Source: a phage. Taken from it: a stretch of DNA of 32,592 bases. Each line of letters opens with the position of its first letter. The stretch's first letter is position 1. Positions 1 to 31,051 of the stretch are shown here, in pieces. The notes below the pieces were generated by a model that worked only from the letters and a program-made list of their open reading frames with translations, was not told the DNA's origin and searched no databases. Both the position numbers and the translations under genes were made by a program. The stretch lies in sequence record PQ400057.1. One strand, given 5' to 3'.

Positions 1-323
1 AGCAGGTCAATGATGTTCTTAATGAAGATGGAGTTAGCGTCTGCACGTTCCTTAGAGGCTGATACGATGAGTATCTTCAACTGAGGGTCTCTCCATAAGG
101 ACCACACAACGAACGCACATGTGATGAACGACTTACCTATACCACGGAAAGCCTGTAGGATGAACTTCTTGTTGTCCCCATTCGCCAGTACCTTAGCCAT
201 GTCAATCTGACACTTAGTGGGCACCGGAAGGTTTAACGCCTTCCACAATACGAACAGGAAGGCCACGAAGTCTCCTTTCAGTTGCGCCACTACGAGCGCA
301 TTACGATTGGATTGAGTAGACAC
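1..323 (-). CDS. 19: terminase large subunit (DNA maturase B), N-terminal part; continues at window end (31156..32592)
   Basis: Minus-strand translation from 323 reads [17 protein letters not shown]..., matching the T7 gp19 N-terminus. The in-frame start is GTG at 323..321; the overlapping ATG at 325..323 is out of frame. GGAGG lies just upstream. The ORF runs off window position 1. Confidence 0.85.
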
Positions 324-332
324 ATTACCTCC

Positions 333-776
333 TTACTTGGTTTCCTGCTTACGTTGCAGTTCACGAATAGTATCCTGTAACGCACGAATCCATGCGTCAC
401 CCTTCTGGGTCACTGCGAGAATACGCTTAGCATCTCGGTCGTCAAGTTCGGCTCGACCATCAGGCTCGAATCCACACTGACCATCGGAGGCTCCGGTAGT
501 TTTGACTCTGACGCGCAGCCGCTTATTGTCGCTACGCAAATCAGAAATAATCCTATCAGTGCTCCCTTCCAGCGCGGCAAGGTCTTCTTGATACTTAGCC
601 GATATTTCATTGAGCGCTCTTTGAGTGCTCGCCGTAGCCTCAACTCTCTTAACGTACTCATTGAGTACCTCCTGTTTCCATTTAGCGTCCATTGAGTCTG
701 ACCCTAGATGCCATCCTAATCCGAATAGCATCCCAGCGAGAACCCAAGGGATTAGCTTACGTAAAAATTCCAGCAT
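333..776 (-). CDS. 18.5: i-spanin (Rz-like lysis protein)
   Basis: The internal ATG at 776 gives MLEFLRKLIPWVLAGMLFGLGW..., matching T7 gp18.5, with an N-terminal transmembrane segment. The track ORF 333..989 extends further 5' from an upstream alternative start. Confidence 0.9.
   Translation of the reverse strand: MLEFLRKLIPWVLAGMLFGLGWHLGSDSMDAKWKQEVLNEYVKRVEATASTQRALNEISAKYQEDLAALEGSTDRIISDLRSDNKRLRVRVKTTGASDGQCGFEPDGRAELDDRDAKRILAVTQKGDAWIRALQDTIRELQRKQETK
410..661 (-). CDS. 18.7: o-spanin (Rz1-like lipoprotein), embedded out of frame in 18.5
   Basis: The 83-aa ORF MSTLRELRLRR...ATISGCASESKLPEPP carries a lipobox-like ISGC and a Pro-rich tail, and is nested within the spanin gene as in T7. 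Confidence 0.85.
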   Translation of the reverse strand: MSTLRELRLRRALKERSMKYRLSIKKTLPRWKGALIGLFLICVATISGCASESKLPEPPMVSVDSSLMVEPNLTTEMLSVFSQ

Positions 777-870
777 AATGCCTCCCGTTAACTTGCAGAT
801 TTCACGTGGGATCATCTCGTGTAGACAATGACATCCATAAAGACCACTATAGGTAGTGGCCTTGAGTATA

Positions 871-1140
871 TCACTGTAATGTGTAAATATCGTCATCTGT
901 AAGACCGTTATCACCGACTTTCTCTTTGTACTCTTCAAGAGCACCAGCAAGTCCACCCAAGATGTGAACATCCGGCTGCAACTTACCAATCTGGAACTTG
1001 TGTCGGTCTAACAGTTTATTGATGGCGTTATAGAGTTGTGGAGAACGACGCTCAGGGTCCGAAAGGTCCGCAAGCATACGCTGAGCCATCGCAGTGTCCA
1101 ACATCTCTAAGAACGTAATTAGGCTCTTATCCTTTTCCAT
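871..1140 (-). CDS. 18: terminase small subunit (DNA maturase A)
   Basis: MEKDKSLITFLEMLDTAMAQRML... (89 aa) matches T7 gp18. AAGGAG sits 8 nt upstream of the ATG at 1140. Confidence 0.9.
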   Translation of the reverse strand: MEKDKSLITFLEMLDTAMAQRMLADLSDPERRSPQLYNAINKLLDRHKFQIGKLQPDVHILGGLAGALEEYKEKVGDNGLTDDDIYTLQ

Positions 1141-1145
1141 ATACA

Positions 1146-1349
1146 TCACTCCTTATTGGCTTTCTTCCAGTCAATCATCTTATCGACTACCTTGGCACCA
1201 ATCTGAACCACTGTGTAGGCGATAGCGGCAATATAGAACCACTCATTAAGACTCAGCCCGAAGAAAAGCCTCGCAGCACCATCAGCCACACCTGTTCCAA
1301 CAATAGGTGCAGCCTTGACTAACTCGTTGTTAAAATCCAAAGACAGCAT
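1146..1349 (-). CDS. 17.5: class II holin
   Basis: The 67-aa ORF MLSLDFNNELVKAAPIVGTGVAD...KMIDWKKANKE matches T7 gp17.5, with a hydrophobic core and charged C-terminus. Confidence 0.9.
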   Translation of the reverse strand: MLSLDFNNELVKAAPIVGTGVADGAARLFFGLSLNEWFYIAAIAYTVVQIGAKVVDKMIDWKKANKE

Positions 1350-1402
1350 GTATCCTCCTTATAAGGTCCATCCGTGGACTGAATGGCTTTCCTAGGTTGT
1401 AA

Positions 1403-1927
1403 TTATTCCTCAGGCTTCTCAGGCCAGTCATAGAAAGGCAGTACACTCAGGTCTACTTTGTATACAGCAAGACGGTAAATTCGCCACGCGTTTAGGAGAC
1501 CTTCTAATCCATCCTCCCCAAGTGCCATGAAGTCAGCATACTGCTCAATCTTCTTGGAGGCCATAGAGACTAGACTAGCCTTCTGGTTCTCAAAGTATCG
1601 CGGATACCAAGTTAGCTTCTCACCATCCCACCACCACTGCATCATATTGTAACGAGAGTATTCAGCTGGGATTTCCTCAAGTTCAACAACACCAGCAGAA
1701 CCCTGAACGGCTAACTCCTGAACATCCTGTTCACACTGAATTACCGAACCGTCTTTGGCATAGACAAGTTTCCATGTATCCTCACGGAATGTCTTACGTA
1801 GTTCATACCAGTCATTCCCATTCTCGTCCTTTGAGAAGCCAACTCCGTGGTCCAGAAGGTCTGCATTCTCTTTGGTGCGCTCTGGAATATAGTTTACGAA
1901 GTTCTTATAGTGGCGTAAAGTCTTCAT
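1403..1927 (-). CDS. tail fiber assembly protein (lambda Tfa-like chaperone)
   Basis: The 174-aa ORF starts MKTLRHY at the ATG at 1927, with GGAGG 7 nt upstream, immediately downstream of gp17. Its C-terminus ...LLNAWRIYRLAVYKVDLSVLPFYDWPEKP resembles the conserved Tfa C-terminal motif (lambda ...[25 protein letters not shown]). There is no counterpart in T7. Confidence 0.65.
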   Translation of the reverse strand: MKTLRHYKNFVNYIPERTKENADLLDHGVGFSKDENGNDWYELRKTFREDTWKLVYAKDGSVIQCEQDVQELAVQGSAGVVELEEIPAEYSRYNMMQWWWDGEKLTWYPRYFENQKASLVSMASKKIEQYADFMALGEDGLEGLLNAWRIYRLAVYKVDLSVLPFYDWPEKPEE

Positions 1928-1943
1928 GTTGTACCCTCCCCCT

Positions 1944-3620
1944 TTAGTAAATATTAAAGCGTTGACCATCGTTGCGTACATACTGCATAACACGCCACTG
2001 GCAACCATCTACCGCACCATCAGCGTTACCGTTTGTGATTCCTGTGATCACCTTACCGCCACCATCTTCTATGCCGTAAGCATTCCACAGTTGCGACCAG
2101 TTAACTCCACCCATCGCAATGTGGTTAACGGTATTTGCAACAAGCCAGCCAGCTAGATGACCATGACCACCCCATACAGAGCCTGCAATGTTTCCGTCAG
2201 TGGACATTGCGGCACCACCTGCCTTAATCGTAGTTGGGAATTGAACCTCGCCATTTGGGTTTAGCCAAATGTCATAAGATGTCGCTTGAGATGCTTCCGG
2301 TTTCCACCGGATTAGGCCGTTGCCGTTCGTAGAACCACCTCGAACCCATCCAATTTCTAACCCTGCATCGTAGAAACTCCAACGAGTGTTACAGACCCAT
2401 CCACCTTGGGTCAAATCACCCGGACCATATGCCACCGTCTTAACGGCAGTATTGGCCTGATTAGTAACACCTAGCGGTTTGTTGAATCCTTCTACCTGCA
2501 AACCATTGTAGCAATGCATGAAGTCCCCGAAGTGCATCTCCCACGTAGCCGAATCATTAGCTTTACTTTGAACCTGAAATGGAACATGCCAGTCCCCTCT
2601 ATGTGGGTGCTTAATGGCCCAAAACGTATTTGATACATATTGTCCCTCAGCAGGGTTATACTCATGTACCATCTGCCCCATAGAGCCAGCTTCGGCAGTT
2701 GCCCTCAGGGTTGAAGCACGATTAGCAATAAGTTCACCGTTAAACTTAGCAGTAGCCGCCCACGAAACAACGTGGTCTTGGCTTACTTCCTCAATGGCAC
2801 CTGCAAGTGCATTCCAGTTACCAAGTTTGTCTGCCTCCAACTTAGCGCGGTCTGCTTGCTGTTCTGCCGAATGGGCAGAGTTAGCGGATGCCGTGGCATA
2901 GTTCTCAGCGTTTACCTCAGATTGATGCGCAGCAGTAGCAGAGTTACCAGCAGATGTAGCGTATTGACCAGCCGTATTCTTGAACTGCTCGGCTTCGTCT
3001 CTGAAACCCTTGGTCTCATCACGCCACTGCTTCGTATTCGTAGCGTTAGTGCTGGACTCGTTCTTAAAGCCCTCCGCTTGATTTCTGAAAGTCTCAGCCT
3101 CATTGCGGAACTGTAGGGCCTCATTACGCGCCTGCCATGAGTTCTGGTTCATGGTCTTAAGTTGACCAAACGGAACAGCGTCACGGTCATCCACGGCGTT
3201 CGCTAGGTTCACAATTCGACGACCACGGGCATCCAAGTGACCATCATTATTGACACCGATAGTATCCGCAGTGAGGTCACGGGCCTCTTCTGCTACGTGC
3301 ATCGTTTGAATCTGAGCGACGTTAAGGTCATATGCACGGAGGATTGAACCATCCGTAAAGTCAACCAATCGGTCTGTCGTGGAGGTTACTCGACGTAACT
3401 CAATGGTCGTGTAGCCATCAGCTGTACCCCAAGCCTTGGTCAGTGAGATGGTAGTGCGAGTAGCAAAGCGGTAGTCTGTATTAATAGTAAGGACCTTTCG
3501 GTCTACGCCAATAAGGGTTACTACTACGAACTTACGGGCTAGATACTCAAACGGGATATTAAAATCACGAGTGGAGCCGTCTAACTGGTAAGTCAAAACG
3601 GTTTTAATTACGTTAGCCAT
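1944..3620 (-). CDS. 17: tail fiber protein; T7-like N-terminal and shaft regions, divergent C-terminal receptor-binding region
   Basis: The 558-aa ORF begins MANVIKTVLTYQLDGS...; roughly the first 260 residues closely match T7 gp17. The distal half (..WEMHFGDFMHCYNG..WGGHGHLAGW..) does not match the T7 tip as I recall it. Confidence 0.9.
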   Translation of the reverse strand: MANVIKTVLTYQLDGSTRDFNIPFEYLARKFVVVTLIGVDRKVLTINTDYRFATRTTISLTKAWGTADGYTTIELRRVTSTTDRLVDFTDGSILRAYDLNVAQIQTMHVAEEARDLTADTIGVNNDGHLDARGRRIVNLANAVDDRDAVPFGQLKTMNQNSWQARNEALQFRNEAETFRNQAEGFKNESSTNATNTKQWRDETKGFRDEAEQFKNTAGQYATSAGNSATAAHQSEVNAENYATASANSAHSAEQQADRAKLEADKLGNWNALAGAIEEVSQDHVVSWAATAKFNGELIANRASTLRATAEAGSMGQMVHEYNPAEGQYVSNTFWAIKHPHRGDWHVPFQVQSKANDSATWEMHFGDFMHCYNGLQVEGFNKPLGVTNQANTAVKTVAYGPGDLTQGGWVCNTRWSFYDAGLEIGWVRGGSTNGNGLIRWKPEASQATSYDIWLNPNGEVQFPTTIKAGGAAMSTDGNIAGSVWGGHGHLAGWLVANTVNHIAMGGVNWSQLWNAYGIEDGGGKVITGITNGNADGAVDGCQWRVMQYVRNDGQRFNIY

Positions 3621-3672
3621 TTGACCTCCTTAAAGTAAATCTAATAGACTACAGGGAGAAGATTCTTTCGTC

Positions 3673-3695
3673 TCTCCCTATAGTGAGTCGTATTA
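3673..3695 (-). promoter_or_regulatory. phage RNAP promoter phi17 (class III consensus)
   Basis: The reverse complement is TAATACGACTCACTATAGGGAGA exactly, upstream of gene 17 and overlapping the gene 16 stop. Confidence 0.85.
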
Positions 3696-6600
3696 TTTCC
3701 TAGGTGTCTCCTTGATGTGGATACCGTTGGCCTCATAAATTTTCATAATTAGTTGCTGCGTGATAGGGTCGTTCGGAACAATCTCACGCATGGTATTAAA
3801 CATCCCTGTACGAAACTCCATCTCGGTAGCCTTGTTAGGCGCTTTCAGTAGCGATACAGCATTAAGTGCCGTACCACCGACCTGCCCTGCGAACCCCAAA
3901 GCAGGAATCTGATCACCTAGAGCACCACTAATCATACCAGTCACTTGACGACCTGTTACCGCTTTTGTGCGATCGCGTTCTTCTGGTTGCTTCGGTAGTA
4001 CCGTGGAGCGTGTGTACTTATAGGTATCATCACCAAACACACCAGCGATCATATCGTAGATGCTAAGTGGCGAACCTAAGTGTGAGCTACGGGAGATAGA
4101 CGCATGAGCAATCATCTTCGGGTCTAGTGCCATCTTAAGGTACTCCTTACGTTTGTCCTCAGGTAAGGCAGCGGCCTTTAGGTGCGCCTGTCCAACGAAG
4201 TAGCCACCAGCAAGCCCACAGGAAACAATGTGAGTTAACGCTTGGTCTAACGCACGGTTGTTCTTTGTGGCCTCATAGAAGCTACGGACAAATCGAGCAT
4301 TAAGCGACTTGATAACGAAGTTCTTAAATTGCATCACCATCTTTACGCCAGCACCATACGCAACGGAATCTTGAGAGGAAATCTTATGTGGTCGCATGAT
4401 TGTCTCTCCAGCCACTTTGTCAGCAAGCCTCCACAAATCCATTGTGCGTGGGTCGTAGGTGAACGCCCTTTTGTCCTTGATTGTGAACTTACCGTTAGCA
4501 TCACGAGTGGTGTGGTCCCGAAATAATTGCTTGATACCATTCCACTGCTCAGGACTGATTGAGGCAGACTTAAGATAATTTGCCTTACCAAACTTGGCAC
4601 CAGTCCCTGATAGCACAGCACTTGCAATATCCCCTAGCACACCCTGACGGGCTGCGTCGATAATGTAGTTTGTTGTTCCATTAAGCATTACCGTCCATGG
4701 GGAGCGGGCTGCTAACTCCTGCGTCCCGAAACGAAGAGTACCAACCACATTAGCCAACACAGCGTTGGTGTCTGTAGACTCCCTAAGTCTGCGAATGTGA
4801 TCTTCACGACTCGGACGGATTAGCTGGTCTAGTTCCTTCCCGAATACCATACTGTGGAGTTCTTTAATCTCAGAGGCTCGCATTGGTTTCCTACGGTTAA
4901 CCCAGTCGTTAATCATAGGGATTCCATGAGTCACCGCAGAGACATTACCTTTGATCAACATAGCACCTATCTCCGTGAAGTTCTGGAGAGGCATATAGAA
5001 GTTCTTAGCGAAGAACGTCAGGTCATTCAGAGAGCGTAAAGCTGTCCCTAAAGCACCTTCTGGGCTACGACGGGCGCGACCAGTTAGAATCTTCACTGTA
5101 TCCTTAAGAGCTTCTACTTCGCCCTTCAACTTCCCGTTGCCTTCGGCCTGCTTACTCAGTGCCATAATTTCATCCTTGAGTTCCTTGGTAGTTTTACCAG
5201 AGCTACCCATGATAGCAATATCGCCATTTACACGACGGTCATATGCTGGCATAAGGATGCGCTGGCTGAACACTCGAATGTCATCTACTGAGAACATAGA
5301 GCCATCTGGTAACGTGATTGGTACATCGGTGTCAAAGAGGTTACGTGCTTCCAGAAAGTTATTGTTCTCGATACCAACAAGCCCCGTGATATTCTCATCA
5401 ACAATAGAAGACGCCGAGAACTGGTCTGTATGGGAGATACCATATGCCTTGTCCATAGCATACTTCCGGACCATTTCGTGTGTTACGTCTTTAGTTGACT
5501 TAAGCCCGTTGACTTCCATCAGGTGCTCGTCGATACGTGCCTTAACTGGTGGACGCAGATAGTATGACGCAAGGGAGCTTTCAGCGATAGCCCTCTGGAA
5601 AGCCTCTCGACTCCCCAAACGTTGAATATGAAAATTCTTCAATTGGGTGTCATACACTCGCGGAATGTATGTACCTTTGTTGCGACTGTCGGGGAAGATA
5701 CTAACCGCCTTTGAATTACCAAACACAGCAGGGTTTTCCATAAGTTCACGCTTGAGGTCATAGTGACCTTTAACGTGGCGCATCAGGTCTAGCTCTTTGG
5801 GAGACAAGTTGACCTGCATTTCAGGATGTTCGATAGCAAGAGCAATTTTACGGTCGATGAACTCAACGGCCTCTGCTTTGCTCATCTTAGGCGCACCTAC
5901 TGTGAACTCAGGGTCTTTCATGACTTCCTTCATCTTATCATAGTATAGGTTCCAATCGCGGTTATCGTTGGATGATAGCCTACTATGGATATCATCAGCG
6001 GTCGAGCCGAACTTACCGTTAGACCCTGATTCCATACCAGTTGGAGAGCGCACTAGGTCACGCGCAATGGAGCGAACTCCCGTGTTCTCAGAGCGTAGTG
6101 TCTTAAGGCCAATCTCAGTGAACCCACCTAAGGAGATACCTCTGGCTGAACGCTCAGGATTTATCGCCTCAAACTCACTTAGTGTCTGTGGGTTCAGTGG
6201 GTTAGTGTCACTGAGGATTTGACCTTGAGGGAGGACGACTGCACCTGGCTCGGTGTCCAATGGTGCGTAGTTAACCCCACTGTACTCTCGGTCGAATTTG
6301 GTACTGTCTGTGTTCATCTTAGACATGTCCACAGAGTTGGCGTTAAAGGCAGTCTCACGGGCTTCCATACGCATCAACGGTCCGACGAACTCGTTGTTAA
6401 ACTCAGCCTCAGGTTTGCTACGCCTCAATCCAGCGGCTATAGTGTCACTGATTGCAGACATTCCTGCCCCAAACACAAGGCCACCTAGTACCGCACCAGT
6501 ATAATTAGCGTCTCCACCAACTATAGACGTTCGCAACCCTTCTGAGGCCATGTTAATAGCTGCACTCTCAGCACCGACAACAAGAGCCTTATTGATTAAC

Positions 6601-7667
6601 TTAAATCCCTTACCTGTTACACCAACCAACGGAACATACGATAGAGGGTCGAATGCCGCACCAATAACGCCAGCGGAAAGCTGTGCCCCGATACCTGCAT
6701 CAGCTTTCTTTAGGTCATTCTCGTAGTTACGCTTAGCTAGATTGATAAGGTCATCCCAGTTCTCACCGTCACCACCAGTAACCACAGAGTAATAACTAGG
6801 AGGCAACCCACTGTTACGTAGTTTGTCCAAGTCTTCCTTGGTAGGCTGGTAGGAGTTCCAACGCGTAGGCGTGATAACATCCTTAAACACATCAAAACCA
6901 TTATCGAGGCGACCAGCACGGAAGGCCATGCCGAGGACTGAGTTGTCAATTTCTGCACTTGCAGCGTCTTTGAATCCGAAGAATATTGAGCGGTCGTCAT
7001 ACTCAGATAGTTCCTGTTTATGGTGGTCCCAAAAGTCAGTAGCGAATGATTTCGCTGGGGCCTCCTGCTCGATACCTTTAATGTCCAATCCAGTTGACTC
7101 AGGGATAGCATCCGTTACTTTGCGCTTCCCTTCTACCTGAATGTCTCCTAAACCAACATCAGAAGGGATACCTTTACCCTTTGGGGTGATTCCACCGAAC
7201 GCTTCCAACTGACCACTCATTGGCGACCTAGCTACATCCATGAGGTTACGTATGTAGTTACGACCCTCCTCGGAGATAGCTGAGAAGTCGCCCTTTGTGT
7301 ATGCTTCAAGTTGTGGACTCCCTAAGCGTCCCTCACCTTGATTGTACGCAAGGGCAGCTTTGAGTTCATCCCCATCGAATTTACTCACCAGTCCAGCAAG
7401 GTGCTTGGCAGCAGCATCAATAGCCAACTCAGGGTTCAGTCGGTCGTCGTCTGGACCATCGGTGACTCGCAACCCCATAGCCTTAGCTGTAGCCTTGGTG
7501 AATTGCATCATGCCTAACGGTCCAGTCTTAGATTTAGCTGTTGGTTGAAACCGTGATTCTGTCCAAGCGACTTTACGTAAAAGGTCATAAGAGACCCCTG
7601 TGGCATCAGCCGCCTTCTGGAACAGACCATCATACTCACTTGGTACGTTCTTATCGTACTTATCCAT
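3693..7667 (-). CDS. 16: internal virion protein D with N-terminal lytic transglycosylase domain (ejection/core protein)
   Basis: The 1324-aa ORF begins MDKYDKNVPSEYDGLFQKAADATGVSYDLLRKVAWTESRF... (an SLT-like motif with catalytic E); overall gp16 architecture. Confidence 0.95.
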   Translation of the reverse strand: MDKYDKNVPSEYDGLFQKAADATGVSYDLLRKVAWTESRFQPTAKSKTGPLGMMQFTKATAKAMGLRVTDGPDDDRLNPELAIDAAAKHLAGLVSKFDGDELKAALAYNQGEGRLGSPQLEAYTKGDFSAISEEGRNYIRNLMDVARSPMSGQLEAFGGITPKGKGIPSDVGLGDIQVEGKRKVTDAIPESTGLDIKGIEQEAPAKSFATDFWDHHKQELSEYDDRSIFFGFKDAASAEIDNSVLGMAFRAGRLDNGFDVFKDVITPTRWNSYQPTKEDLDKLRNSGLPPSYYSVVTGGDGENWDDLINLAKRNYENDLKKADAGIGAQLSAGVIGAAFDPLSYVPLVGVTGKGFKLINKALVVGAESAAINMASEGLRTSIVGGDANYTGAVLGGLVFGAGMSAISDTIAAGLRRSKPEAEFNNEFVGPLMRMEARETAFNANSVDMSKMNTDSTKFDREYSGVNYAPLDTEPGAVVLPQGQILSDTNPLNPQTLSEFEAINPERSARGISLGGFTEIGLKTLRSENTGVRSIARDLVRSPTGMESGSNGKFGSTADDIHSRLSSNDNRDWNLYYDKMKEVMKDPEFTVGAPKMSKAEAVEFIDRKIALAIEHPEMQVNLSPKELDLMRHVKGHYDLKRELMENPAVFGNSKAVSIFPDSRNKGTYIPRVYDTQLKNFHIQRLGSREAFQRAIAESSLASYYLRPPVKARIDEHLMEVNGLKSTKDVTHEMVRKYAMDKAYGISHTDQFSASSIVDENITGLVGIENNNFLEARNLFDTDVPITLPDGSMFSVDDIRVFSQRILMPAYDRRVNGDIAIMGSSGKTTKELKDEIMALSKQAEGNGKLKGEVEALKDTVKILTGRARRSPEGALGTALRSLNDLTFFAKNFYMPLQNFTEIGAMLIKGNVSAVTHGIPMINDWVNRRKPMRASEIKELHSMVFGKELDQLIRPSREDHIRRLRESTDTNAVLANVVGTLRFGTQELAARSPWTVMLNGTTNYIIDAARQGVLGDIASAVLSGTGAKFGKANYLKSASISPEQWNGIKQLFRDHTTRDANGKFTIKDKRAFTYDPRTMDLWRLADKVAGETIMRPHKISSQDSVAYGAGVKMVMQFKNFVIKSLNARFVRSFYEATKNNRALDQALTHIVSCGLAGGYFVGQAHLKAAALPEDKRKEYLKMALDPKMIAHASISRSSHLGSPLSIYDMIAGVFGDDTYKYTRSTVLPKQPEERDRTKAVTGRQVTGMISGALGDQIPALGFAGQVGGTALNAVSLLKAPNKATEMEFRTGMFNTMREIVPNDPITQQLIMKIYEANGIHIKETPRK

Positions 7668-7693: not shown

Positions 7694-9955
7694 TTACTCC
7701 TTACGCCCATAGATGAACTTCGGAGTCTGTTTACGTTTCTCTCGGACTCGTTTAGCAGCAGCTTCACGAGCTTTCTTAGCGGCAACTATAGGTGCTCGCT
7801 TGGTGGCATCATTAATAGCCTCATCACGGGCCTTCTCAACGGCTTCCGTTGCGAGACGCTCTTGTGTTTCCTTCCAGACCTTGGACAACATCTCCTTGTC
7901 GTAACGAACCCGTGGGCCAGTCCCTGTAGTTGGCATGATGTAGATAGACTTCCCGATTACCGAGACGGTCATCTTATCAGAGGCCATACTTGGGTTAGCC
8001 GCTATGATTCCTTTAAGAGCAGCGTCAATAATATCCTTACCTTGCTTCCAAGATTTAGGGTCATCGTTTACCTGTAGATAGTTCCTCGGAATTACCCCAA
8101 TGACTCCCTCACTGTCTGAGCTATCGTCATTAAAGGTCGTAGTGGACTCCTTGAGGAACTTCTGCATCTCAGTCATAGCCATATCGACATTATTGGTACG
8201 ATACTTAACCGAGTCATAAATCTTACGAGCAAGTCCCCTTAGTTCTGTCGGCATATTAGCTATCTCCGGAACTTTAGAGTCATTAAGTGCTTGCTCAAAG
8301 GCTCTATCATCTTCGAATCGTTGCTCCTTGGAACGTGTGGCCATCTGACGGTCAGCATCAATCAACTCCTGCACATCAACACCCTGTCTGTCAGCTAAGT
8401 CCATGGTCAAGAATAGCTCAGCTTGCTCAGGGTACAGTGACGCTATTAGGTATGGGTCTGCGTTGCGGATTCTGCGTAAGGCATCCATCGCTGGAGTCTT
8501 ATCTGCTAACTTACCATTCATCACAGAAGAAGACCACTCCTGAGCCGCATCCTGAACCATCGTTCCTATTGCAGTCCTGAAAGGCCCGTCCTTAGAGTCT
8601 GATTGCAGGTACTGTAGTTTGAGTCTATCTTTGGCTCCATCTGGGATGTCCATAGCGTCTATGTCAGCCAGCTTCTTGTTAGCGTAGTTTACAATGTCGC
8701 TATGCTTGAACTCCCCAGTGTTATCGTTTGTAGGCATATCCTTAAAGTCCGTAGAGACCCACTCTCCATTGATTCGCTTCTGATACTGAGCGTCAATAAC
8801 CCTAAACTTATTATCGGCCTTCTGAGCCTTATCGAGTGCTTTGGCCTCGTTCTTGGCCCACTCCACCATCTTGGCTCGGAGTTGCTTCTGTGCCTCTATA
8901 AGCGTGGCGCGTTGAGGGGTCATCTGCTCTCCGGGCTGGTGTTTATCTAACTCAGCCTTTATTCCTTGGAGCTTCTCCCAACCAACACGAGGGTCGTCTA
9001 CGAACAACGCAGAGTTGACATCAAGTTGAAACTTCTCATTCAGTTTCGCATCGTTGTCATATTGTGCTCTCTGGGCGGTCACCATAAGAGCGTTCCACTG
9101 CTCTTCACCCATAAGTTCCTTATAGGTCGTAGTGGCTCCGTTGAGTGTTACCTTCTTATCACCAACTCGCATCAGGAAGTCAGCACCACCAGCACGGCTA
9201 GAAGCATCACTGAATGCTTGGCTTATAAGCTGGGTAGCTTGGGCATCGGAAGGGATGGCACCAGTCACTAGACCATTGGAGATATAATTCTCAAAGAAGT
9301 CAGCAGAGTCTGGGCGACGAAGCATATCAGGGTCTTGAAGGACACCGTTGAGTTCCACTCGGCTGTTAATCACTGCGCCCTTCTGAGCCTGTTGACTCAA
9401 GAAGCTATCGTGTGCCCCATACAGTGAGATGTTACGCTCAGTGATGTCCCCATTGAAACCACGCTGATAATCAACATCCTCAGGGTCAATCCCGAACTGC
9501 TCAGCGTATGCCTTAGCGCCCTCTTGAAGACGACTATGGCGATACTGTTCCATCTCTTCACGAGTACGGAAGACACCCTCTTTGACCTTCTGCATAACGT
9601 CATCGTCCACAAGGTACGCAGCGTTACGCCCAGTCTTGACTCGGAGTGCTTCCATAGCGTATGGGTCATCCTGATACAGAAGGGTCCCGTTGTTGAGAGC
9701 TTCTCGGCGTTGCTCAGGGGTCAACTTACGAATAATCTCGTTAGAGCGTTCGTCAGCTAGGTCACGTGCTCGTTGTTCCTTAGCGGTATACATATCGGCA
9801 CCAGCCTTAGCGAACCGACCAATGGCGTCCAATAGGCTTGACCTTGGCTGTTCGGCCTGAGTGGTTGCTGCACGATAGCCCATACCACCAGCGCCACCAC
9901 GTAGCCGAGAGAGTCCCGGTTGTGCCGCTTGAAGGGCAGATTCAATTTTACTCAT
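7694..9955 (-). CDS. 15: internal virion protein C (core/ejection protein)
   Basis: The 753-aa ORF has the size and position of gp15 between genes 14 and 16; the sequence is gp15-like. Confidence 0.9.
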   Translation of the reverse strand: MSKIESALQAAQPGLSRLRGGAGGMGYRAATTQAEQPRSSLLDAIGRFAKAGADMYTAKEQRARDLADERSNEIIRKLTPEQRREALNNGTLLYQDDPYAMEALRVKTGRNAAYLVDDDVMQKVKEGVFRTREEMEQYRHSRLQEGAKAYAEQFGIDPEDVDYQRGFNGDITERNISLYGAHDSFLSQQAQKGAVINSRVELNGVLQDPDMLRRPDSADFFENYISNGLVTGAIPSDAQATQLISQAFSDASSRAGGADFLMRVGDKKVTLNGATTTYKELMGEEQWNALMVTAQRAQYDNDAKLNEKFQLDVNSALFVDDPRVGWEKLQGIKAELDKHQPGEQMTPQRATLIEAQKQLRAKMVEWAKNEAKALDKAQKADNKFRVIDAQYQKRINGEWVSTDFKDMPTNDNTGEFKHSDIVNYANKKLADIDAMDIPDGAKDRLKLQYLQSDSKDGPFRTAIGTMVQDAAQEWSSSVMNGKLADKTPAMDALRRIRNADPYLIASLYPEQAELFLTMDLADRQGVDVQELIDADRQMATRSKEQRFEDDRAFEQALNDSKVPEIANMPTELRGLARKIYDSVKYRTNNVDMAMTEMQKFLKESTTTFNDDSSDSEGVIGVIPRNYLQVNDDPKSWKQGKDIIDAALKGIIAANPSMASDKMTVSVIGKSIYIMPTTGTGPRVRYDKEMLSKVWKETQERLATEAVEKARDEAINDATKRAPIVAAKKAREAAAKRVREKRKQTPKFIYGRKE

Positions 9956-9961
9956 AGTTCA

Positions 9962-10552
9962 TTACCTCCCCGTCTTGGTTCCTTTAGCGGCAACAATAGG
10001 TGCCTTAGTGGTTGGCTTAGAGTCGAACGCCCCAGACGCATAAGCACTAGCAGCAGATGACCCCATGATAGCCAGTGGGTCAAGAACCATCTGTAGCTTA
10101 CTCTTCTGTTTCTGTTCGCCCTTGTAGATTTCGTCAATCTGACTTGCAGCACTTTGAGTACCACCAAGTTGCTGTGCGAAGATTGCTTGGTAGTCTCTAC
10201 GGTAGTTCTCCGTGACCATGTTGGCCTCCCGAATGAACTGACCTTCTGAGACTCGCTTAATGCGGTCCATTGAGGAACCTTCAAGCATACTTTCTCCGAT
10301 AGCCGCTCGGATAGACCCCATAGCTTGGACCTTCTGCATGTTCTGTGAGGTCAACTCAGCGGACGCTTCCTCAAGTTTACTTCGAGCTTGCAACGATAGG
10401 TCAGCATTCTGGATGTTCGTCTGCTTCATAAGTTCTACTGCTTGACGACGACCAGCGGCGGTCTGTGAAGCTATCATTTTAGCTTGAGCGTTCTGGCTAC
10501 CGATAGCCTGAGCACCAGCTAGTGCGATTGGTATTGCAGCAGGCCAACACAT
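9962..10552 (-). CDS. 14: internal virion protein B
   Basis: The 196-aa ORF MCWPAAIPIALAGAQAIGSQNAQAKMIA... matches T7 gp14. Confidence 0.9.
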   Translation of the reverse strand: MCWPAAIPIALAGAQAIGSQNAQAKMIASQTAAGRRQAVELMKQTNIQNADLSLQARSKLEEASAELTSQNMQKVQAMGSIRAAIGESMLEGSSMDRIKRVSEGQFIREANMVTENYRRDYQAIFAQQLGGTQSAASQIDEIYKGEQKQKSKLQMVLDPLAIMGSSAASAYASGAFDSKPTTKAPIVAAKGTKTGR

Positions 10553-11052: not shown

Positions 11053-13443
11053 TTAAATACCGGAACTTCTCCGTAAGTAGTTACCTTCCCAGCCACACCC
11101 AATGATGTTCAGAGGGGTAGTCTCATCTGACAAGATGTATACTGTATTGAACTTGGCGTTGCCCACCACAGGGAATCGGTATTGTCCGGTCCCTAAGTTC
11201 AATCTCCCAGCCCTCAGAGCGTTAGAGCCTAATCGCGCGCCAGCCATTGTGTACTTCCAGTTGGACGATTGGTTCTCAACATAAATGTCAAATGTGCCAG
11301 ACTCCTCATAGTTAACCCACGCTCGGCGTAACTGTAAACGACCAATGTCTTCCGTGGAGGTAGACCCATCGTCGGCAGTTTGCTTAATGAGGAACTTAGA
11401 GAACTCATAGACGAAGTGTATGTTGAACCCAATGAACACTTCACGTCCCTCTAAGTTACCACTGAGTCTCAGCCAAGGGTCACTATTCCACCCACCAGTT
11501 GGTTGCTCACATACGGTTATCTTACCATCAGGCTCCAATACTGTGATTGTGTCCCTCCCGAAGTTTGCACCACCATAAATGGTTGGAATATGGATAGAGG
11601 TAGTGAACGTGTCATCGTTGTATGTTCCACTCGGAATCGTGTAGCGAATCTTCATGTCCATAAAGGCACGGTAAGGTTCACCTTGTAAATCAATGGCGTT
11701 CTTAGTGAAAGAGATTTTAGCTAGGAACGTATTGAATTCATTACGAAGAATAACGTACATATCTGAGTTGATGCTCTGGCACGCTAGAACCTGCACGTTT
11801 GCCCCAAAGTCCCAATGGGACCACGACTGTTGTCTTAACTCTTCGTTCAGGTACAGGAATTTGTACATGAAGATTTTACTTGGGTCCCCTTGAGATAGTA
11901 CCGAACAGAAGTTTTCCGTACCACTGCCGCAAATACTAAACACACCATTTGGGATATAGTTAGGAACATGTGCTGTAATGTCCTCAGCGTTCTTAACGGA
12001 ACTGACATCCTGCACAGCGTAGTACCTGTGGATGGACGTGTAGCTGGACCTCGGACTAGCAAAGTAGACATTACGCCCAATCCCATAAGGTCTCGCTCGG
12101 TCCTGTACATCAAACTGGGTCGTTAGGTTCAACTCAACTGACTTCGACGTGAGAGTACCGGAAGCAGTCAGGACGAACTGAGCTTCGTCTGACCAAATGA
12201 GCAACTCCTCAGAGAACGGAACGGCATACTTAAGGATTGCGATTCGGTTGGTACTCACAGCCACATCAATAGGGTCATCGTCACTCAAGTTAGCGATTGA
12301 CGCTGGGTAGAAGTTGAAGTACTTAGCGGTTCTACTCAGGATGATATTCTCACCACTAAGGAAACCCAAACGGTTACGGAAGAAGAACACATCGTTGATT
12401 GTGGAGTCCATGAAGGAAGGCCATGGGTTTGTATCGTCATCACCGCAGGTTTTAGGGTTCCACTCAAGCCATCTGAACTCAAAGTTGCCATCAGAAGCCC
12501 TAACGAGTGCATGTGGCATCGTTTCATATAGAAGCTGATTGTTAACGTTCCATCCCAGTGTCTCCACCCATACTTTGCGAGTAGCATCATATCTGACGTA
12601 ATATTGATCAGCAGACTTTGACGCATCCCCTACGATTTTCACCATGTATCCATCAGGAGCGTTAGGTGGCAGCTTAGAGAACGACTGAGCGTAGTGAGTA
12701 ACAGGATTAATCAACTGGTCCGCATAACCATCCTTAGTCACTAGGGAGTTAATCTCACCAGCAGCGTCAGCAATAATGTGAATGAAACCCTGTCCAACGT
12801 TAAAGGTCCATCCGGGAGTATTTGCCCGAAGTTGTCGCGCAAGTTCCTCAGCGAGCCATTGAGCATCCGTGTTATTAACATGTGCTGGCTGTGAGCCATC
12901 AGGAATCTGGTAGCTTGCTTGGGTTCCACCGTTTATCTGAATCTGTAGTGTTCTACCATATTGACCACCACGAACGTTGATTAGCGCATCCTTCTTAGGG
13001 TTAAACCCAGGAAGGTTTACCGAGTTGGGATTGCGTGCTACCCTTACGTTTCTGTTAACGATGAACGTATAATCAGCCACAGTGACCATCCTCAAGTCAT
13101 TCCTTGGGTTTGCAGTGTTTATATACGAGGAACCATCTGTAGGGTATCGCACCTGTTTTTCGTTACCAGCAAGGTCAAACACACGGATTCCTGTCCCAGT
13201 GAACACAGCGTAATACTGTTCGTTTTCGTCACGGTTAATCAGATGGATGTAAGGTGCTTGTCCTAAATCACCGCTTCCTCCTAGGGTCTTAAGGAAAACC
13301 ATAGGTGGACGCTTTTGGAGGCCCTCGGTCTCCGAAGACCAACCGTTAACCTGACGTGACCCTTGGTCTGGATAACGAAGGATGTCAGGCTGTTGACTGA
13401 TACCACCCTTCAAGTTCTTAATTGATTGGCTAATGAGTGCCAT
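11053..13443 (-). CDS. 12: tail tubular protein B
   Basis: The 796-aa ORF MALISQSIKNLKGGISQQPDILRYPDQGSRQVNGW... matches T7 gp12. Confidence 0.95.
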   Translation of the reverse strand: MALISQSIKNLKGGISQQPDILRYPDQGSRQVNGWSSETEGLQKRPPMVFLKTLGGSGDLGQAPYIHLINRDENEQYYAVFTGTGIRVFDLAGNEKQVRYPTDGSSYINTANPRNDLRMVTVADYTFIVNRNVRVARNPNSVNLPGFNPKKDALINVRGGQYGRTLQIQINGGTQASYQIPDGSQPAHVNNTDAQWLAEELARQLRANTPGWTFNVGQGFIHIIADAAGEINSLVTKDGYADQLINPVTHYAQSFSKLPPNAPDGYMVKIVGDASKSADQYYVRYDATRKVWVETLGWNVNNQLLYETMPHALVRASDGNFEFRWLEWNPKTCGDDDTNPWPSFMDSTINDVFFFRNRLGFLSGENIILSRTAKYFNFYPASIANLSDDDPIDVAVSTNRIAILKYAVPFSEELLIWSDEAQFVLTASGTLTSKSVELNLTTQFDVQDRARPYGIGRNVYFASPRSSYTSIHRYYAVQDVSSVKNAEDITAHVPNYIPNGVFSICGSGTENFCSVLSQGDPSKIFMYKFLYLNEELRQQSWSHWDFGANVQVLACQSINSDMYVILRNEFNTFLAKISFTKNAIDLQGEPYRAFMDMKIRYTIPSGTYNDDTFTTSIHIPTIYGGANFGRDTITVLEPDGKITVCEQPTGGWNSDPWLRLSGNLEGREVFIGFNIHFVYEFSKFLIKQTADDGSTSTEDIGRLQLRRAWVNYEESGTFDIYVENQSSNWKYTMAGARLGSNALRAGRLNLGTGQYRFPVVGNAKFNTVYILSDETTPLNIIGCGWEGNYLRRSSGI

Positions 13444-16439: not shown

Positions 16440-18047
16440 AATGCCCGGCTGTAGACCTACGGAATCAGCAGCAGCAGCCATAGCCTCAGGTGAAGCTGTA
16501 GCCTGTGCAGCCATACCTTGAGCCAGCGCAGCAGCACCATTATCCATACCCATTTGCATAGACTGTTGGGCCATCTTCTGTTGCTTCTGTTCTTCGGTGA
16601 GAAGGATACCAGAAGTGTCAATACCGATAGCGTTCGCAATGCGCAACTTAATCATCGCAAGGTTGATGTCAGGGTCATCGCGCATAGGAGCTAGGGCAGC
16701 CCACGCAGTGACACAACGCTCCAACTTATCAAGGTCTTGACCTCGACCAATTGCTTCCAGACCTGTACTAATAGTTGGCTCTACGGCTTCCTTAGGTAAC
16801 TCAGGAATCTGTTGCGTGGCTTGTAGTTGCTTCAAGAGCACTCGTACCAGAGGCAATTGTAATTCTTGAGAAAGGATAGAGTAGACACCGCCCAGAGTAT
16901 CTTCAAGTTCAGAAGCTACATACCGAATCTCTTCGGCGGTCACACGTTCGCCTGTACGCTGAACCGCAGAGTTCAACATGAAGGCAAACGAAAGGCGAGC
17001 CTCGATAGCGTCACTTACGGCTTTAGCTACAGTAAAGTCTGCTTGCTTCTCCAGTTGGAGGAACGAGATGTCTTCTGGACGACCTGTAACGAAGTCACCA
17101 GTCTGAGCTTTGGTAAGTCGGCGTGGCTGGGTGATACCAGCAGGATTCACTAAGCCGATAACCTTAGAGCTAATCATGGACATCTTGACGATAGCCTCTT
17201 GGAGATTCTCAAGGGACCGTAAGTCACCTAAGTATTCCTCAATGTACGAACGACCGTAGGATTCACCATCCAGACGAACCATTCGAATCGGGATGTATGG
17301 GCAAGCCTCTTTAGGGTAAGACCCATCGGAGCCTTGTATCTCCATACCTTCAACCTCTTCGTAGCGGAGATATTCGTCTGACTCTTCGTCCAAGTAAATG
17401 TGAGTGTACACATCAATGGTCTCATCAGGTTTCTTCTCGCCGCCTTGACCTTCTACAGCCTTACGGATGTCCTCAGGGAGAGCACCAAAAGCTATCTGGT
17501 CACGAGTCACCATTTGCAGAACGTTGCCGAATGCGTCTCGTTGGACCACATAAGAAGACAATCGGTACAGCTTCATGGGATTATAGTTTGACCCTTCTGG
17601 TTCCGGTAGGTACAGCAGGACGTTACCAGCTACGACTAACTGCTTGAGAGCCTCAAAGAGAGTCACTCGGTAACTGTTAGACTCAATGTAGTTCATGATG
17701 ATACGCTCTACCATCGAGAGACCCTCATCGACCTTAGCGAGTCCATCGGGGTCGTCCAGTAACTGTTTAGCCTCATACTCAGAGATGGTCAGCTTCATCC
17801 ACGTTTGCATCGGGAAGAGAGCCAGCATGAGCTTAGAGGCCAAGTTATTGAGACCGCGAGCACCCACAGCTTGCCACGGAGTCGTGTAGTCTGTTGATGC
17901 GTTATCGGAATCCTTAGGGAAGAGGGACGGAATGGTGTACTGAGCGCAGTTTTGAGCACGAGTCTCATACGGAGCGCGGTCGTTCTTCAATCGCTCATAG
18001 ACCGACTTTGCGCCTTCCTCGGCTAGACCTGTACGCTTCTCAGCCAT
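16437..18047 (-). CDS. 8: portal (head-tail connector) protein
   Basis: The 536-aa ORF MAEKRTGLAEEGAKSVYERLKNDRAPYETRAQN... matches T7 gp8. Confidence 0.95.
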   Translation of the reverse strand: MAEKRTGLAEEGAKSVYERLKNDRAPYETRAQNCAQYTIPSLFPKDSDNASTDYTTPWQAVGARGLNNLASKLMLALFPMQTWMKLTISEYEAKQLLDDPDGLAKVDEGLSMVERIIMNYIESNSYRVTLFEALKQLVVAGNVLLYLPEPEGSNYNPMKLYRLSSYVVQRDAFGNVLQMVTRDQIAFGALPEDIRKAVEGQGGEKKPDETIDVYTHIYLDEESDEYLRYEEVEGMEIQGSDGSYPKEACPYIPIRMVRLDGESYGRSYIEEYLGDLRSLENLQEAIVKMSMISSKVIGLVNPAGITQPRRLTKAQTGDFVTGRPEDISFLQLEKQADFTVAKAVSDAIEARLSFAFMLNSAVQRTGERVTAEEIRYVASELEDTLGGVYSILSQELQLPLVRVLLKQLQATQQIPELPKEAVEPTISTGLEAIGRGQDLDKLERCVTAWAALAPMRDDPDINLAMIKLRIANAIGIDTSGILLTEEQKQQKMAQQSMQMGMDNGAAALAQGMAAQATASPEAMAAAADSVGLQPGI

Positions 18048-18061
18048 GTGTCACCTCCTGA

Positions 18062-19505: not shown

Positions 19506-20395
19506 AGGTAAATCTCCTTGTCAATAAAGTTGTACTCGTTGAACCGGAGGATGCGAGCCATCTGGCCCTGCTTGATAATATCCTCTTCAGTCATACCAGC
19601 CTTAGCACCAATGGACTTAATGCAGTCCCAAAGCGTCTCATGAGGCTCAGGGTCGCGTTTAACCCATTTAGTGACCTCTTGGCCTTTGTTCTTGCCAGAC
19701 TTAAGCACAGACGTTTTAGGCTCGGTTATGAACGGGTTATTCAAGAAGTCCTCGGCAGTGTCTCCCCACCCAGCAATCCCTGAGTAACCATCGGTGATGT
19801 CACCTTTGATTGTCTGGAAGAGGTGCCACCAGTCAGCGGACTCTTCTGTCTGAGTAAGGATGTTACCAGTGGTACACCACAGGAAGTCACAGTTAGGTAT
19901 GGTCTTAAAGTCCTTATCGCACGAGATGATTACAGCCTTACGAGCACCGAATGCAGACGGATTGGAGGCAATAACTCCCATAACGTCATCACCCTCAAGC
20001 ATAGGCTCACGGATGCAATAGAACTCTTCGCGCTCAAAGAGAGCCTCAAGGAACTCAAAGTAACCTACAGGTTTCTTAGTTGCCTTACGGTTGGCCTTGT
20101 AGTTAGGGTCCACGAGTTCCTTACGCCAGTTCACACTATCGGTGAACGCAAGGACAATCGGAGCGCCTACCCAAGCCTTCTTGCGGGTCTCGTAGGACTT
20201 GATGGAATCCTCAAGAATCTGACGGGCCTTAGCGTGGTCACAGCAGCGGTGCCAAATCTCTTCCTCCCATGAGGCATCAAACTCAGCAGCACTCATTGCT
20301 TGGAAGACCAGCCAGTCACCGTCCATCACGAGGATACCCTTGTCATCACAGCCTTCGCGTAACTCATAAAATTGTTTAAGGTCAAGAAGTGCCAT
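19493..20395 (-). CDS. 6: 5'-3' exonuclease
   Basis: The 300-aa ORF MALLDLKQFYELREGCDDKGILVMDGDWLVFQAM... matches T7 gp6. Confidence 0.95.
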   Translation of the reverse strand: MALLDLKQFYELREGCDDKGILVMDGDWLVFQAMSAAEFDASWEEEIWHRCCDHAKARQILEDSIKSYETRKKAWVGAPIVLAFTDSVNWRKELVDPNYKANRKATKKPVGYFEFLEALFEREEFYCIREPMLEGDDVMGVIASNPSAFGARKAVIISCDKDFKTIPNCDFLWCTTGNILTQTEESADWWHLFQTIKGDITDGYSGIAGWGDTAEDFLNNPFITEPKTSVLKSGKNKGQEVTKWVKRDPEPHETLWDCIKSIGAKAGMTEEDIIKQGQMARILRFNEYNFIDKEIYLWRP

Positions 20396-21048: not shown

Positions 21049-21067
21049 AATAATTTCTCCTATAGAA

Positions 21068-24229: not shown

Positions 24230-25936
<1,707 letters not shown>

Positions 25937-25998
25937 TCAAGTTAGACATGGCCTCTATAGCTTCCTCCTTGTGTTGAAAGAAAGGGAAACCGTTGTGG

Positions 25999-26478: not shown

Positions 26479-26933
26479 TATTTCTTTCCTCCCTTCGATT
26501 GTTTCAGCTTGTCAAATGGCACCTCCTTTTTGGGTTCTTTGAGCCATTCTACAGGAATTAATTTGTCAGCAAACAGAATACCATGCTTCTCACACCATTC
26601 ACCGTAACTGGTCGGAGACCCTTTGTACAGCTTGGTGCGCGAGCTTGAGAACACCAGTCGGATGTCCAGTTCAGGAAACTGTTCGCGAATCAATAAGTGT
26701 TTCTTTCGGTCGTCACTCTCCCATAAACCTTTGGTTTCAATAAAGATTCCGTTAGGCAGCAGGAAGTCTGGAGTATACACATGGTTGCTCGCAGGGACAA
26801 CGTAAGGGATTTTCCACAGTTCATAGTCGAACTTAATTCCCTTACCCTCTAGCTGCTTAGAGACCTTATCTTCTAGGCCGGAACGGAATGTCCCGACCTT
26901 TCTGATACCACGCGCAGCGTATGCGCCAGCCAC
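26478..26933 (-). CDS. 3: endonuclease I (Holliday junction resolvase)
   Basis: The 151-aa ORF MAGAYAARGIRKVGTFRSGLEDKVSKQLEGKGIKFDYE... matches T7 gp3. It overlaps 3.5 by TAATG. Confidence 0.95.
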   Translation of the reverse strand: MAGAYAARGIRKVGTFRSGLEDKVSKQLEGKGIKFDYELWKIPYVVPASNHVYTPDFLLPNGIFIETKGLWESDDRKKHLLIREQFPELDIRLVFSSSRTKLYKGSPTSYGEWCEKHGILFADKLIPVEWLKEPKKEVPFDKLKQSKGGKK

Positions 26934-30007: not shown

Positions 30008-30408
30008 ATGTATTTCCTCAGTTTGCCATTTCGTATGTAGTGTATTGTTGAAGCAGCCACATTAAGTGCCCTTGCTAGCTCCCTGCCGGAGCGAGGGTCC
30101 GTCCGTATCATATCGACCTGCTCATTAGTTATCTTTCTAGCACCACGGCCTTTGATAGCCATGTCTCTAAGGTTGTCTGCCTGTGTGCCCTTGGTTAGAT
30201 GTGCAGGATTTACACACCACCTATTGTCACAGGAGTGTAGGACTATATCGCTCTTATTCAACTCACCGTTGAACAGAATGTACGAAGCCCTATGGGCATA
30301 TATAGGCTTACCATGCAGGCGGAACCGTCCGTAACCATTGGGCTGGATACTACCAATCCAACGGGACAAGAAGAGACACCAAAAGGTAAACCCAAGGGTC
30401 AACCCCAA
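30004..30408 (-). CDS. HNH (His-Me finger, HNH_3-like) endonuclease ORF; no canonical start, open frame runs into the terminal repeat, possibly 5'-truncated or a pseudogene
   Basis: The translation ...NGYGRFRLHGKPIYAHRASYILFNGELNKSDIVLHSCDNRWCVNPAHLTKGTQADNLRDMAIKG contains the GYGRF...AHR...HxCDN..C.NP.HL core. The first in-frame ATG is downstream of the catalytic motif; the track start is a TTG inside the repeat with no SD. The stop overlaps the ligase ATG (ATGA). Confidence 0.55.
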   Translation of the reverse strand: MGLTLGFTFWCLFLSRWIGSIQPNGYGRFRLHGKPIYAHRASYILFNGELNKSDIVLHSCDNRWCVNPAHLTKGTQADNLRDMAIKGRGARKITNEQVDMIRTDPRSGRELARALNVAASTIHYIRNGKLRKYI

Positions 30409-30897: not shown

Positions 30898-31051
30898 GAG
30901 TCTCCCTCCTTTATGTTGGTCTTTAAGTTAAGGTGATATTAATACAATATAATCACCATTCTTGGAGGTCACTTTAGGTACACCATTATGCATACTTTAT
31001 GCACTCTATAAGTATTCATTCAGTATCTATATAGTAACCTTTCGTCCCTCC

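Follow-up and report, generated by a model that had tools for sequence, protein, structure and literature searches.

A three-part tail fibre and a predicted Mu-type fibre-assembly protein in the late tail-fibre locus of a T7-like phage

In phage T7, only 58 nucleotides (nt) separate the tail-fibre gene 17 from gene 17.5, and the tip of the fibre folds without a helper chaperone. What, then, is the function of a 174-amino-acid (aa) open reading frame (ORF) that stands between these two genes in a T7-like phage, and what kind of fibre does it accompany? We addressed this question in sequence record PQ400057.1, a stretch of 32,592 nt (hereafter the window) that represents a T7-like genome read along the minus strand. 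A first-pass annotation, made from the sequence alone, had described the gene 17 product (gp17) as a T7-type N-terminal domain and shaft fused to an acquired distal half, and the gene after it as a tail-fibre assembly protein (Tfa) gene similar to that of lambda. The positions and lengths (558 and 174 aa) that it gave for the two ORFs were correct, and both lie on the minus strand (Table 1). Our analyses indicate that we are very probably dealing with a late operon for the tail fibre of a T7-like phage of the Teseptimavirus type, in which exchange of modules by recombination has remade the fibre and the new tip arrived together with the gene for its cognate chaperone.

In profile searches, the 174-aa ORF scored 38.7 bits for the PF02413 (Caudo_TAP) family, against a cut-off of 22.1 and over model positions 3-131 of 131, which is the homology that the first-pass annotation had anticipated. 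It also matched PHROG 136, 'tail fiber assembly protein' (E=7e-39). The only sequence match in the Protein Data Bank (PDB) was to Mu gpU (5yvq_B), over the full length (E=3.7e-11), and in pairwise BLASTP the protein was 31% identical to Mu U′ (E=2e-18) and 29% identical to Mu U (E=5e-15). NCBIfam provided no model for either gp17 or Tfa. An AlphaFold2 (AF2) model built with 35 homologues had a mean predicted local distance difference test (pLDDT) score of 91.6; in it, aa 1-107 form an alpha/beta domain, and two long helices (aa 109-135 and 142-156) make up the C-terminal part. When this model was searched with Foldseek, 5yvq_B was again the sole significant PDB match, with a template-modelling (TM) score of 0.81 (normalised to the target) and a root-mean-square deviation of 2.7 Å. 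The protein thus has the two-domain Caudo_TAP build, and it carries the C-terminal WP-x-x-PE motif, ending in ...DWPEKPEE; its gene lies directly 3′ of the fibre gene and is co-inherited with it. As judged from sequence and model, we regard the 174-aa ORF as a bona fide tail-fibre assembly protein, and the proposal that a genuine Tfa-family gene had been inserted between genes 17 and 17.5 was borne out. The description of this gene as lambda-like holds at the level of the Pfam family, which is the same, but its closest characterised relatives are the U′-S′ proteins of Mu and P1, not the Tfa-Stf proteins of lambda.

The Tfa gene is under strong purifying selection and is functional. The ratio of non-synonymous to synonymous substitution rates (dN/dS), calculated against eight relatives, was 0.03-0.08 with dS values of up to 0.67, and mean column identity was 92% across phages from seven host genera. 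Among phages whose isolation hosts were E. coli, Shigella, Cedecea, Leclercia and Serratia, Tfa identity is 91-97%; it is approximately 80-81% in Kvp1 (Kluyvera) and approximately 80% in SPLA4 (Salmonella).

The fibre itself consists of three modules, A, B and C, rather than two, as seen when an alignment of eight fibres was scored by segment. Module A as a whole (aa 1-277), i.e., the N-terminal domain and shaft, shares 94-98% aa identity with T7; phmmer aligned aa 1-298 with T7 gp17 (PDB 7boz) at E=2.5e-169, and aa 1-162 scored 241.9 bits for PF03906 against a cut-off of 25.2. Over aa 1-150, identity was 98% to T7, 97% to PGX1, 93-95% to Yanou and Bas103, and 75-79% to Kvp1, LL2 and the Leclercia phage. 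The same comparisons, in the same order, gave 94%, 89%, 29-32% and 16-23% for the shaft (aa 151-261), 15%, 17%, 73-74% and 11-12% for module B (aa 278-470), and 22%, 83%, 79-84% and 79-81% for module C (aa 496-558). A mosaic fibre with a T7-type N-terminus and shaft, at 98% and 94% identity followed by a fall to 15-22%, had therefore been rightly recognised.

The boundaries of these modules were also visible in the DNA. Homology to T7 (blastn, 92%) spans positions 3700 to 2791 and picks up again at 1393, 10 nt past the Tfa stop codon, with 845 nt of T7 (35454-36298) replaced in the window by 1397 nt. The first joint (aa 262-277), at which all eight fibres are 62-75% identical, lies between the end of T7-like DNA (2791) and the start of homology to Yanou, Bas103 and Bas67 (2837). 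Homology to PGX1, ESh2, LL2 and Kvp1 resumes at 2147-2132 and continues through the Tfa gene into the holin gene. These breakpoints, together with the per-module identities, support the earlier suggestion that the distal part was acquired horizontally. A compositional island was considered and rejected, as the GC content of the fibre region (0.45-0.53) resembles that of its surroundings.

An ordinary T7 or T3 tip could likewise be rejected. The identities of 15% (aa 278-470) and 22% (aa 496-558) to the T7-type C-terminal pyramid and tip domains (4A0T) were obtained from a forced alignment, and the only element that phmmer found in common between the distal part of gp17 and T7 was a linker motif; a search of the distal region had been proposed as a check, and no alignment with an ordinary T7/T3 tip was found beyond this motif. 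The claim that the distal half is unrelated to the T7 tip stands as far as these identities are concerned, but it does not extend to the shared TDGNIxGxxWGG motif, nor to the Foldseek search, in which a T7 fragment (4a0u) was the second of the PDB matches.

Instead, the tip is homologous to that of Mu S′. By pairwise BLASTP, module C was 44% identical to Mu S′ over 50 aa (E=5e-10) and did not match Mu S, the protein of the G(+) orientation; it was also homologous to the S′ tips of P1 and D108. A phmmer search matched 8ju3_A at E=1.8e-4, and a family profile matched residues 423-487 of the same chain at E=2.8e-27. In an AF2 model of the distal 297 residues, aa 461-558 had pLDDT values of at least 90, and Foldseek returned two significant PDB matches (E <= 0.001), i.e., 5yvq_A (E=5e-5), which is the Mu fibre in complex with its chaperone, and 4a0u_B (E=6e-4), a C-terminal fragment of T7 gp17. 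A fold search of BFVD matched only generic tail-fibre proteins. Module C is 79-84% identical in all T7-like fibres that are accompanied by Tfa, and approximately 30 related clusters were found among 1.84 billion cluster representatives, including long fibres of the myovirus or siphovirus type.

The second joint carries a DGNIxGSxWGG..GWL motif that is common to the window and to Bas67 (ErnstBeyeler, MZ501064). Module B of Bas67 is collinear with that of the window up to ...GWL; beyond this point the Bas67 fibre has a tip of the T7 type, with 48% identity to T7 aa 435-553. Bas67 has no Tfa gene, and the next gene after gene 17 in its record is the holin gene. T7 itself carries the TDGNIxGxxWGG form of the motif at aa 434-458, ahead of its own tip. 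Since Bas67 switches tip at this point and T7 has the same motif before its tip, the linker is the natural crossover between chaperone-independent and chaperone-dependent tips, and Bas67 can serve as a natural control for which type of tip needs the chaperone. The window has a two-residue insertion in this linker at aa 484-485 (GG-HG-HLAGWL), which is otherwise conserved in length in all aligned relatives.

To what, then, is the Tfa gene linked? In a collection of 50,697 phage records, Tfa (at least 80% identity) and the 85-aa tip (at least 60%) were found in exactly the same 15, namely PGX1, ESh2, ESh6, ESh10, Yanou, Bas103, LL2 (two records), Leclercia 10164-302 (two records), 10164RH, Seera, Kvp1 (two records) and SPLA4; the annotated records cover three Studiervirinae genera. 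The same tip and Tfa occur with still other middle domains on four metagenome contigs (L012-L015). As these 15 records, these contigs and Bas67 show, only module C travels with the Tfa gene; module B does not. The proposal that the distal half is a single module in need of a chaperone therefore applies to the last ~63-90 residues, which are Tfa-linked, but not to module B, which occurs independently in Bas67.

Module B is rare. Its best match was Bas67 (77% aa identity), with 72% for Yanou and 71% for Bas103 in the same search, and besides Bas67, Yanou and Bas103 no full-length match was found in the phage collection. Among the cluster representatives it is covered by essentially two clusters, one Yanou-like (P0005) and one distant (P0008), the latter a 545-aa fibre that is 34% identical; three more (P0010, P0028, P0033) matched in part. 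These distributions were taken from an exhaustive HMMER search of the representatives and a profile query, a word-indexed protein search being too shallow for the purpose (one match for the distal 303 aa and three for Tfa). In the distal AF2 model, aa 401-461 were predicted with moderate confidence (pLDDT 76-86).

The two kinds of component also differ in how fast their proteins change. Values of dN were 0.13-0.15 for the tip and 0.17 for module B compared with 0.01-0.05 for Tfa, i.e., 3-10 times higher, as would suit a chaperone that stays constant as the receptor-binding parts in its care diversify. If the fibre is built like T7 gp17, the N-terminal domain (aa 1-150) would dock the gp17 trimer on the tail and the T7-type shaft, to about aa 277, would extend the fibre, with module B and then module C, joined via the DGNIxGSxWGG..GWL linker, forming the distal part. 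In Mu, the N-terminal domain of Tfa binds the fibre and its C-terminal helices trimerise (PMC9608196, summarising the 5YVQ work). If the window resembles Mu in this respect, three Tfa molecules would attach distally to the gp17 trimer as it forms, giving a 3:3 complex, the N-terminal domain gripping the fibre and the C-terminal helices trimerising, and would so nucleate the correct trimerisation and folding of module C. Tfa may then remain on the finished fibre, as reported for Mu.

Several observations weigh against such a reading. The dependence of the tip on a chaperone is suggested by homology and co-occurrence only, and the likeness of the tip to Mu S′ is limited to ~50-65 residues. Foldseek TM-scores for the distal model were low (0.24-0.40), because a monomer model of an intertwined trimeric fibre is extended, and the first half of module B (aa 295-393, pLDDT <50) had no confident AF2 fold. 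Moreover, dS against the same relatives was about 0.9-2.8 for the tip, which has only 63 codons and gives noisy values, and 0.37-0.67 for Tfa; this contrast hints at a recombination breakpoint between the two, such that tip and Tfa may not always have been one travelling unit.

Three other explanations of the locus were weighed against a chaperone-dependent, receptor-binding tip. The first places specificity in module B and regards module C and Tfa as a generic, interchangeable cap for folding and trimerisation, equivalent to a T7-type tip or to an intramolecular chaperone. Module B is indeed wholly different between Tfa-carrying fibres of different hosts, with module C conserved at 79-84%; the same module B works with module C and also, in Bas67, with a tip of the T7 type; and Bas102 has a C-terminal intramolecular chaperone instead (PMC11990801). 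Variable positions, however, cluster also in the loops of module C and in the second joint. In both T7 and Mu, moreover, receptor binding is established to reside in the outermost domain. In addition, rough E. coli K-12 was the isolation host of Bas67, in which module B is followed by a T7-type tip, whereas Bas103, which combines modules B and C, requires the O16 O-antigen; what matters is therefore either the tip or the divergence of ~25% between the module B sequences. We consider this explanation possible but not probable.

The second explanation, that the 174-aa protein is mainly a structural co-adhesin retained at the tip, with its N-terminal domain binding the receptor (lipopolysaccharide, LPS) as proposed for Mu Tfa, strikes us as doubtful. 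The modelled N-terminal domain does superpose on that of Mu Tfa as seen bound to the fibre in 5yvq, and the chaperones of Mu and Ur-lambda are present in mature phages and contribute to receptor recognition (PMC9608196, introduction). According to the same paper, however, the related chaperone of Pam3 is not found in virions, and an adhesin that sets host range would be expected to vary, whereas Tfa is 91-97% identical across hosts, with the low dN/dS given above and fibre modules that are far more divergent. Finally, although T7 needs no such gene, the ORF is almost certainly not a decaying, functionless remnant of past recombination, as it is intact, has a strong Shine-Dalgarno sequence and the same low dN/dS at dS of up to 0.67, and is present in all 15 tip-bearing phage records and in several metagenome contigs but in no record that lacks the tip; a pseudogene was rejected on the same dN/dS.

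The preferred reading, a fibre whose Mu S′-type tip came with its chaperone gene, leaves room for a broader and tentative one. The second joint might be a general 'socket' at which T7-type and Tfa-dependent Mu S′-type tips are swapped on one middle domain, and in this podovirus lineage Tfa might be retained in the virion and form part of the adhesin; we rate this as unlikely on present evidence. Were it so, nature would have provided a matched set, with Bas67 to be compared against the window, Yanou and Bas103, one that would reveal the element setting host range (rough LPS core versus O-antigen) and yield a portable design rule for retargeting T7 fibres.

With regard to the receptor, the first-pass annotation had read the new tip as implying one different from that of T7. 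This does not follow. Bas102-104 are reported to depend on a restored O16 O-antigen, and earlier Studiervirinae isolates of the BASEL collection to use the LPS core, like T7 (PMC11990801); module B thus occurs both in a phage isolated on K-12 (Bas67) and in one that needs O16 (Bas103). The receptor is most probably an LPS glycan, core or O-antigen, bound via modules B and/or C, although our confidence in this assignment is low.

The features of the locus are collected in Table 1. The order gene 16, phi17, gene 17, holin gene 17.5 is that expected for a T7-type gp17. Matches to the phi17 consensus expected by chance in the sequence numbered zero, and a consensus scan from 3673 down to 1100 gave no further T7 promoter match. 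Since no promoter match lies between phi17 and the holin gene, gene 17 and the downstream Tfa gene would be carried on one late transcript. The list of ORFs gives the Tfa frame as 1403-2008 (201 aa), counted from an earlier ATG in the same frame, such that it overlaps gene 17. We consider the ATG at 1927, which gives 174 aa, to be the plausible start because it is preceded by the Shine-Dalgarno sequence AAGGGGGAGGG (at about 1933-1943), follows the gp17 stop codon after a gap of 16 nt, and is the start used in all annotated relatives.

Table 1. Features of the tail-fibre locus, in window coordinates.
Feature	Position	Strand	Basis
Gene 16	3693-7667	minus	ORF and profile match
phi17 class III T7 promoter, exact 23-nt consensus	3673-3695	minus	0 mismatches to TAATACGACTCACTATAGGGAGA
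Gene 17, tail fibre protein (558 aa + stop)	1944-3620	minus	ORF, Pfam, PHROG, phmmer
Module A1, gp17 aa 1-150, T7-type N-terminal tail-attachment domain	3171-3620	minus	PF03906 E=2.9e-72; PDB 7boz, 8e4g, 8dsp
Module A2, gp17 aa 151-261, T7-type shaft (coiled coil in T7)	2838-3170	minus	94% aa identity to T7
Joint 1, gp17 aa 262-277 (EADKLGNWNALAGAIE), conserved shaft end, crossover zone	2790-2837	minus	blastn breakpoints
Module B, gp17 aa 278-470, rare middle domain	2211-2789	minus	shared with Bas67, Yanou and Bas103
Joint 2, gp17 aa 471-495 (STDGNIAGSVWGGHGHLAGWLVANT), conserved linker, tip exchange point	2136-2210	minus	comparison with Bas67 and T7
Module C, gp17 aa 496-558, small C-terminal tip, presumed Tfa client	1947-2135	minus	homologous to the Mu/P1 S′ tip
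Tfa gene (174 aa + stop), equivalent of Kvp1 gene 17.2	1403-1927	minus	Pfam, PHROG, PDB, AF2
Gene 17.5, type II holin, right-hand boundary of the locus	1146-1349	minus	PF10746 E=9e-36
Gene 18	871-1149	minus	ORF

How new is this arrangement? Only the combination of modules is: the layout of gene 17, Tfa gene and gene 17.5 has been annotated since 2008, when it appeared in Kvp1, and is annotated also in LL2, Leclercia 10164-302, Yanou and Bas103. The Kvp1 paper remarks only that genes 17-17.2 differ from those of phage Berlin, and literature searches for Kvp1 with 'tail fiber assembly' and for Cedecea phage Yanou found nothing. The T7 shaft, module B, module C and Tfa occur together in no record of the phage collection, and a look-up in a collection of 15 billion proteins found neither the exact gp17 nor the exact Tfa sequence. 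The same combination is present, at 87-92% nt identity, on a metagenome scaffold (L016; ENA ERZ28588614, HAYD20-1 scaffold_1323), which comes nearest to the window over the entire fibre-Tfa-holin block. Gene 17 of this scaffold is called as two ORFs (170 and 243 aa), with ~150 nt matching window 2745-2908 gone; either the shaft has suffered a deletion or frameshift, or the assembly is at fault.

Elsewhere in the window, some departures from T7 were observed. The two ends of the window abut inside gene 19 (T7 37692 and 37694), such that it behaves as a circularly permuted molecule, and positions 30376-32592 correspond to T7 37694-39911, from gene 19 to the right end. Window ~30351-30507 matches the T7 terminal repeat, the match ending (at ~30351) at about what we take to be the end of that repeat, and the blastn breakpoint lies at about 30363. 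In this junction region (30018-30510) the terminal repeat runs straight into an HNH endonuclease gene at codon ~19; this gene, which immediately precedes that for the ligase, is 5′-truncated and joined 54 nt into its Bas104 homologue. In a whole-window alignment, nothing matched T7 135-6460, i.e., genes 0.3-1.2 and the RNA polymerase gene are absent, and yet seven T7-consensus promoters are present. The junction is probably that of a truncated linear contig with joined or rotated ends, which is the simplest reading because it appears to coincide with a physical genome end; a genuine polymerase-less deletion derivative is a possible alternative. Furthermore, T7 9860-10278 (gene 2.8), 11206-11742 (the gene 3.8 region), 16468-16834 (gene 5.3) and 19843-20240 (gene 7.7) have no blastn counterpart in the window, where these gaps sit at about 26909-26930, 25753-25978, 21065-21067 and 18047-18053, respectively. 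T7 endonuclease-type accessory genes are therefore missing or replaced, and the HNH endonuclease gene ahead of the ligase gene is a different one, an arrangement also seen in Bas104.

Phages engineered for altered host range are built mainly on T7, and the fibre is the part that is usually swapped. The locus is a further natural case of T7-like fibres built from at least three exchangeable modules, and it shows that tips of one class are accompanied by a Mu-type chaperone gene, such that transplanting a tip of this class means carrying the gene along. The comparison with Bas67 pinpoints the natural joint between chaperone-dependent and chaperone-independent tips. Otherwise, these findings do not challenge current understanding.

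Among the T7-like phages, Kvp1 (Kluyvera, Berlinvirus; FJ194439 / NC_011534, 2008) has the same order of elements as the window (16, phi17, 17, Tfa, 17.5, 18), with Tfa 81% and tip 79% identical; the GenBank annotation of its gene 17.2 reads 'putative phage tail fiber assembly protein'. It differs in its Berlinvirus-type N-terminal domain (75%) and shaft (16%) and in an unrelated middle domain (12%). Two Teseptimavirus phages, EmilieLinder (Bas103, Escherichia) and Yanou (Cedecea), share module B (71-74%), module C (79-84%) and Tfa (93-95%) with the window. Yanou is also the closest genome overall, at 92% nt identity over 98% of 25 kb, and the Tfa of Bas103 was described as 'Mu-like' in 2025, with a predicted hexameric fibre-Tfa complex (PMC11990801). 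The shaft of both phages, however, is an unrelated coiled coil (29-32% identity), longer by ~40 residues than the shaft of the window, which is still that of T7. PGX1 (Escherichia) has a T7-type N-terminal domain (97%), shaft (89%) and the tip (83%), together with the closest Tfa found (97%), and ESh2 (Shigella) shows the same blastn pattern with a Tfa that is 94% identical, but the middle domain of this pair differs from that of the window (17% identity in PGX1). On sequence grounds, the window looks like a PGX1/ESh2-type fibre in which the middle domain has been replaced by one of the Yanou/Bas67 type. Bas67 (Escherichia, Berlinvirus), in turn, offers the best module B and the same joint, but with a T7-type tip and no Tfa gene. 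T7 gp17 (4A0T/4A0U, 7BOZ) matches the window to about aa 277, shares the linker motif and has a distal layout that Foldseek recognises; it differs in the pyramid and tip domains, which the window replaces (15-22% identity), and T7 has no chaperone gene after gene 17.

The closest characterised system outside the T7 group is the S′-U′ pair of Mu, in G(-) orientation, and P1 (solved Mu fibre-Tfa complex, PDB 5YVQ, 8JU3), in which the chaperone is a full-length homologue of Tfa with the same N-terminal fold and is encoded directly 3′ of the fibre gene. A recent transfer from Mu or P1 was rejected, given identities of only ~30-44%. Both Mu and P1 belong to the myoviruses; their fibres are long, and an invertible G/C segment encodes two alternative tip-chaperone sets. 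No inverted repeats of at least 14 nt were detected in positions 900-3800 of the window, and the opposite strand of its ORF list contained no second tip or Tfa ORF; a Mu-like invertible segment with two sets and an invertase was rejected on these grounds. The locus thus works like the Mu S′-U′ pair and yet is not a G-segment system: in place of two alternatives, the window has a single, fixed tip-chaperone set on a podovirus fibre.

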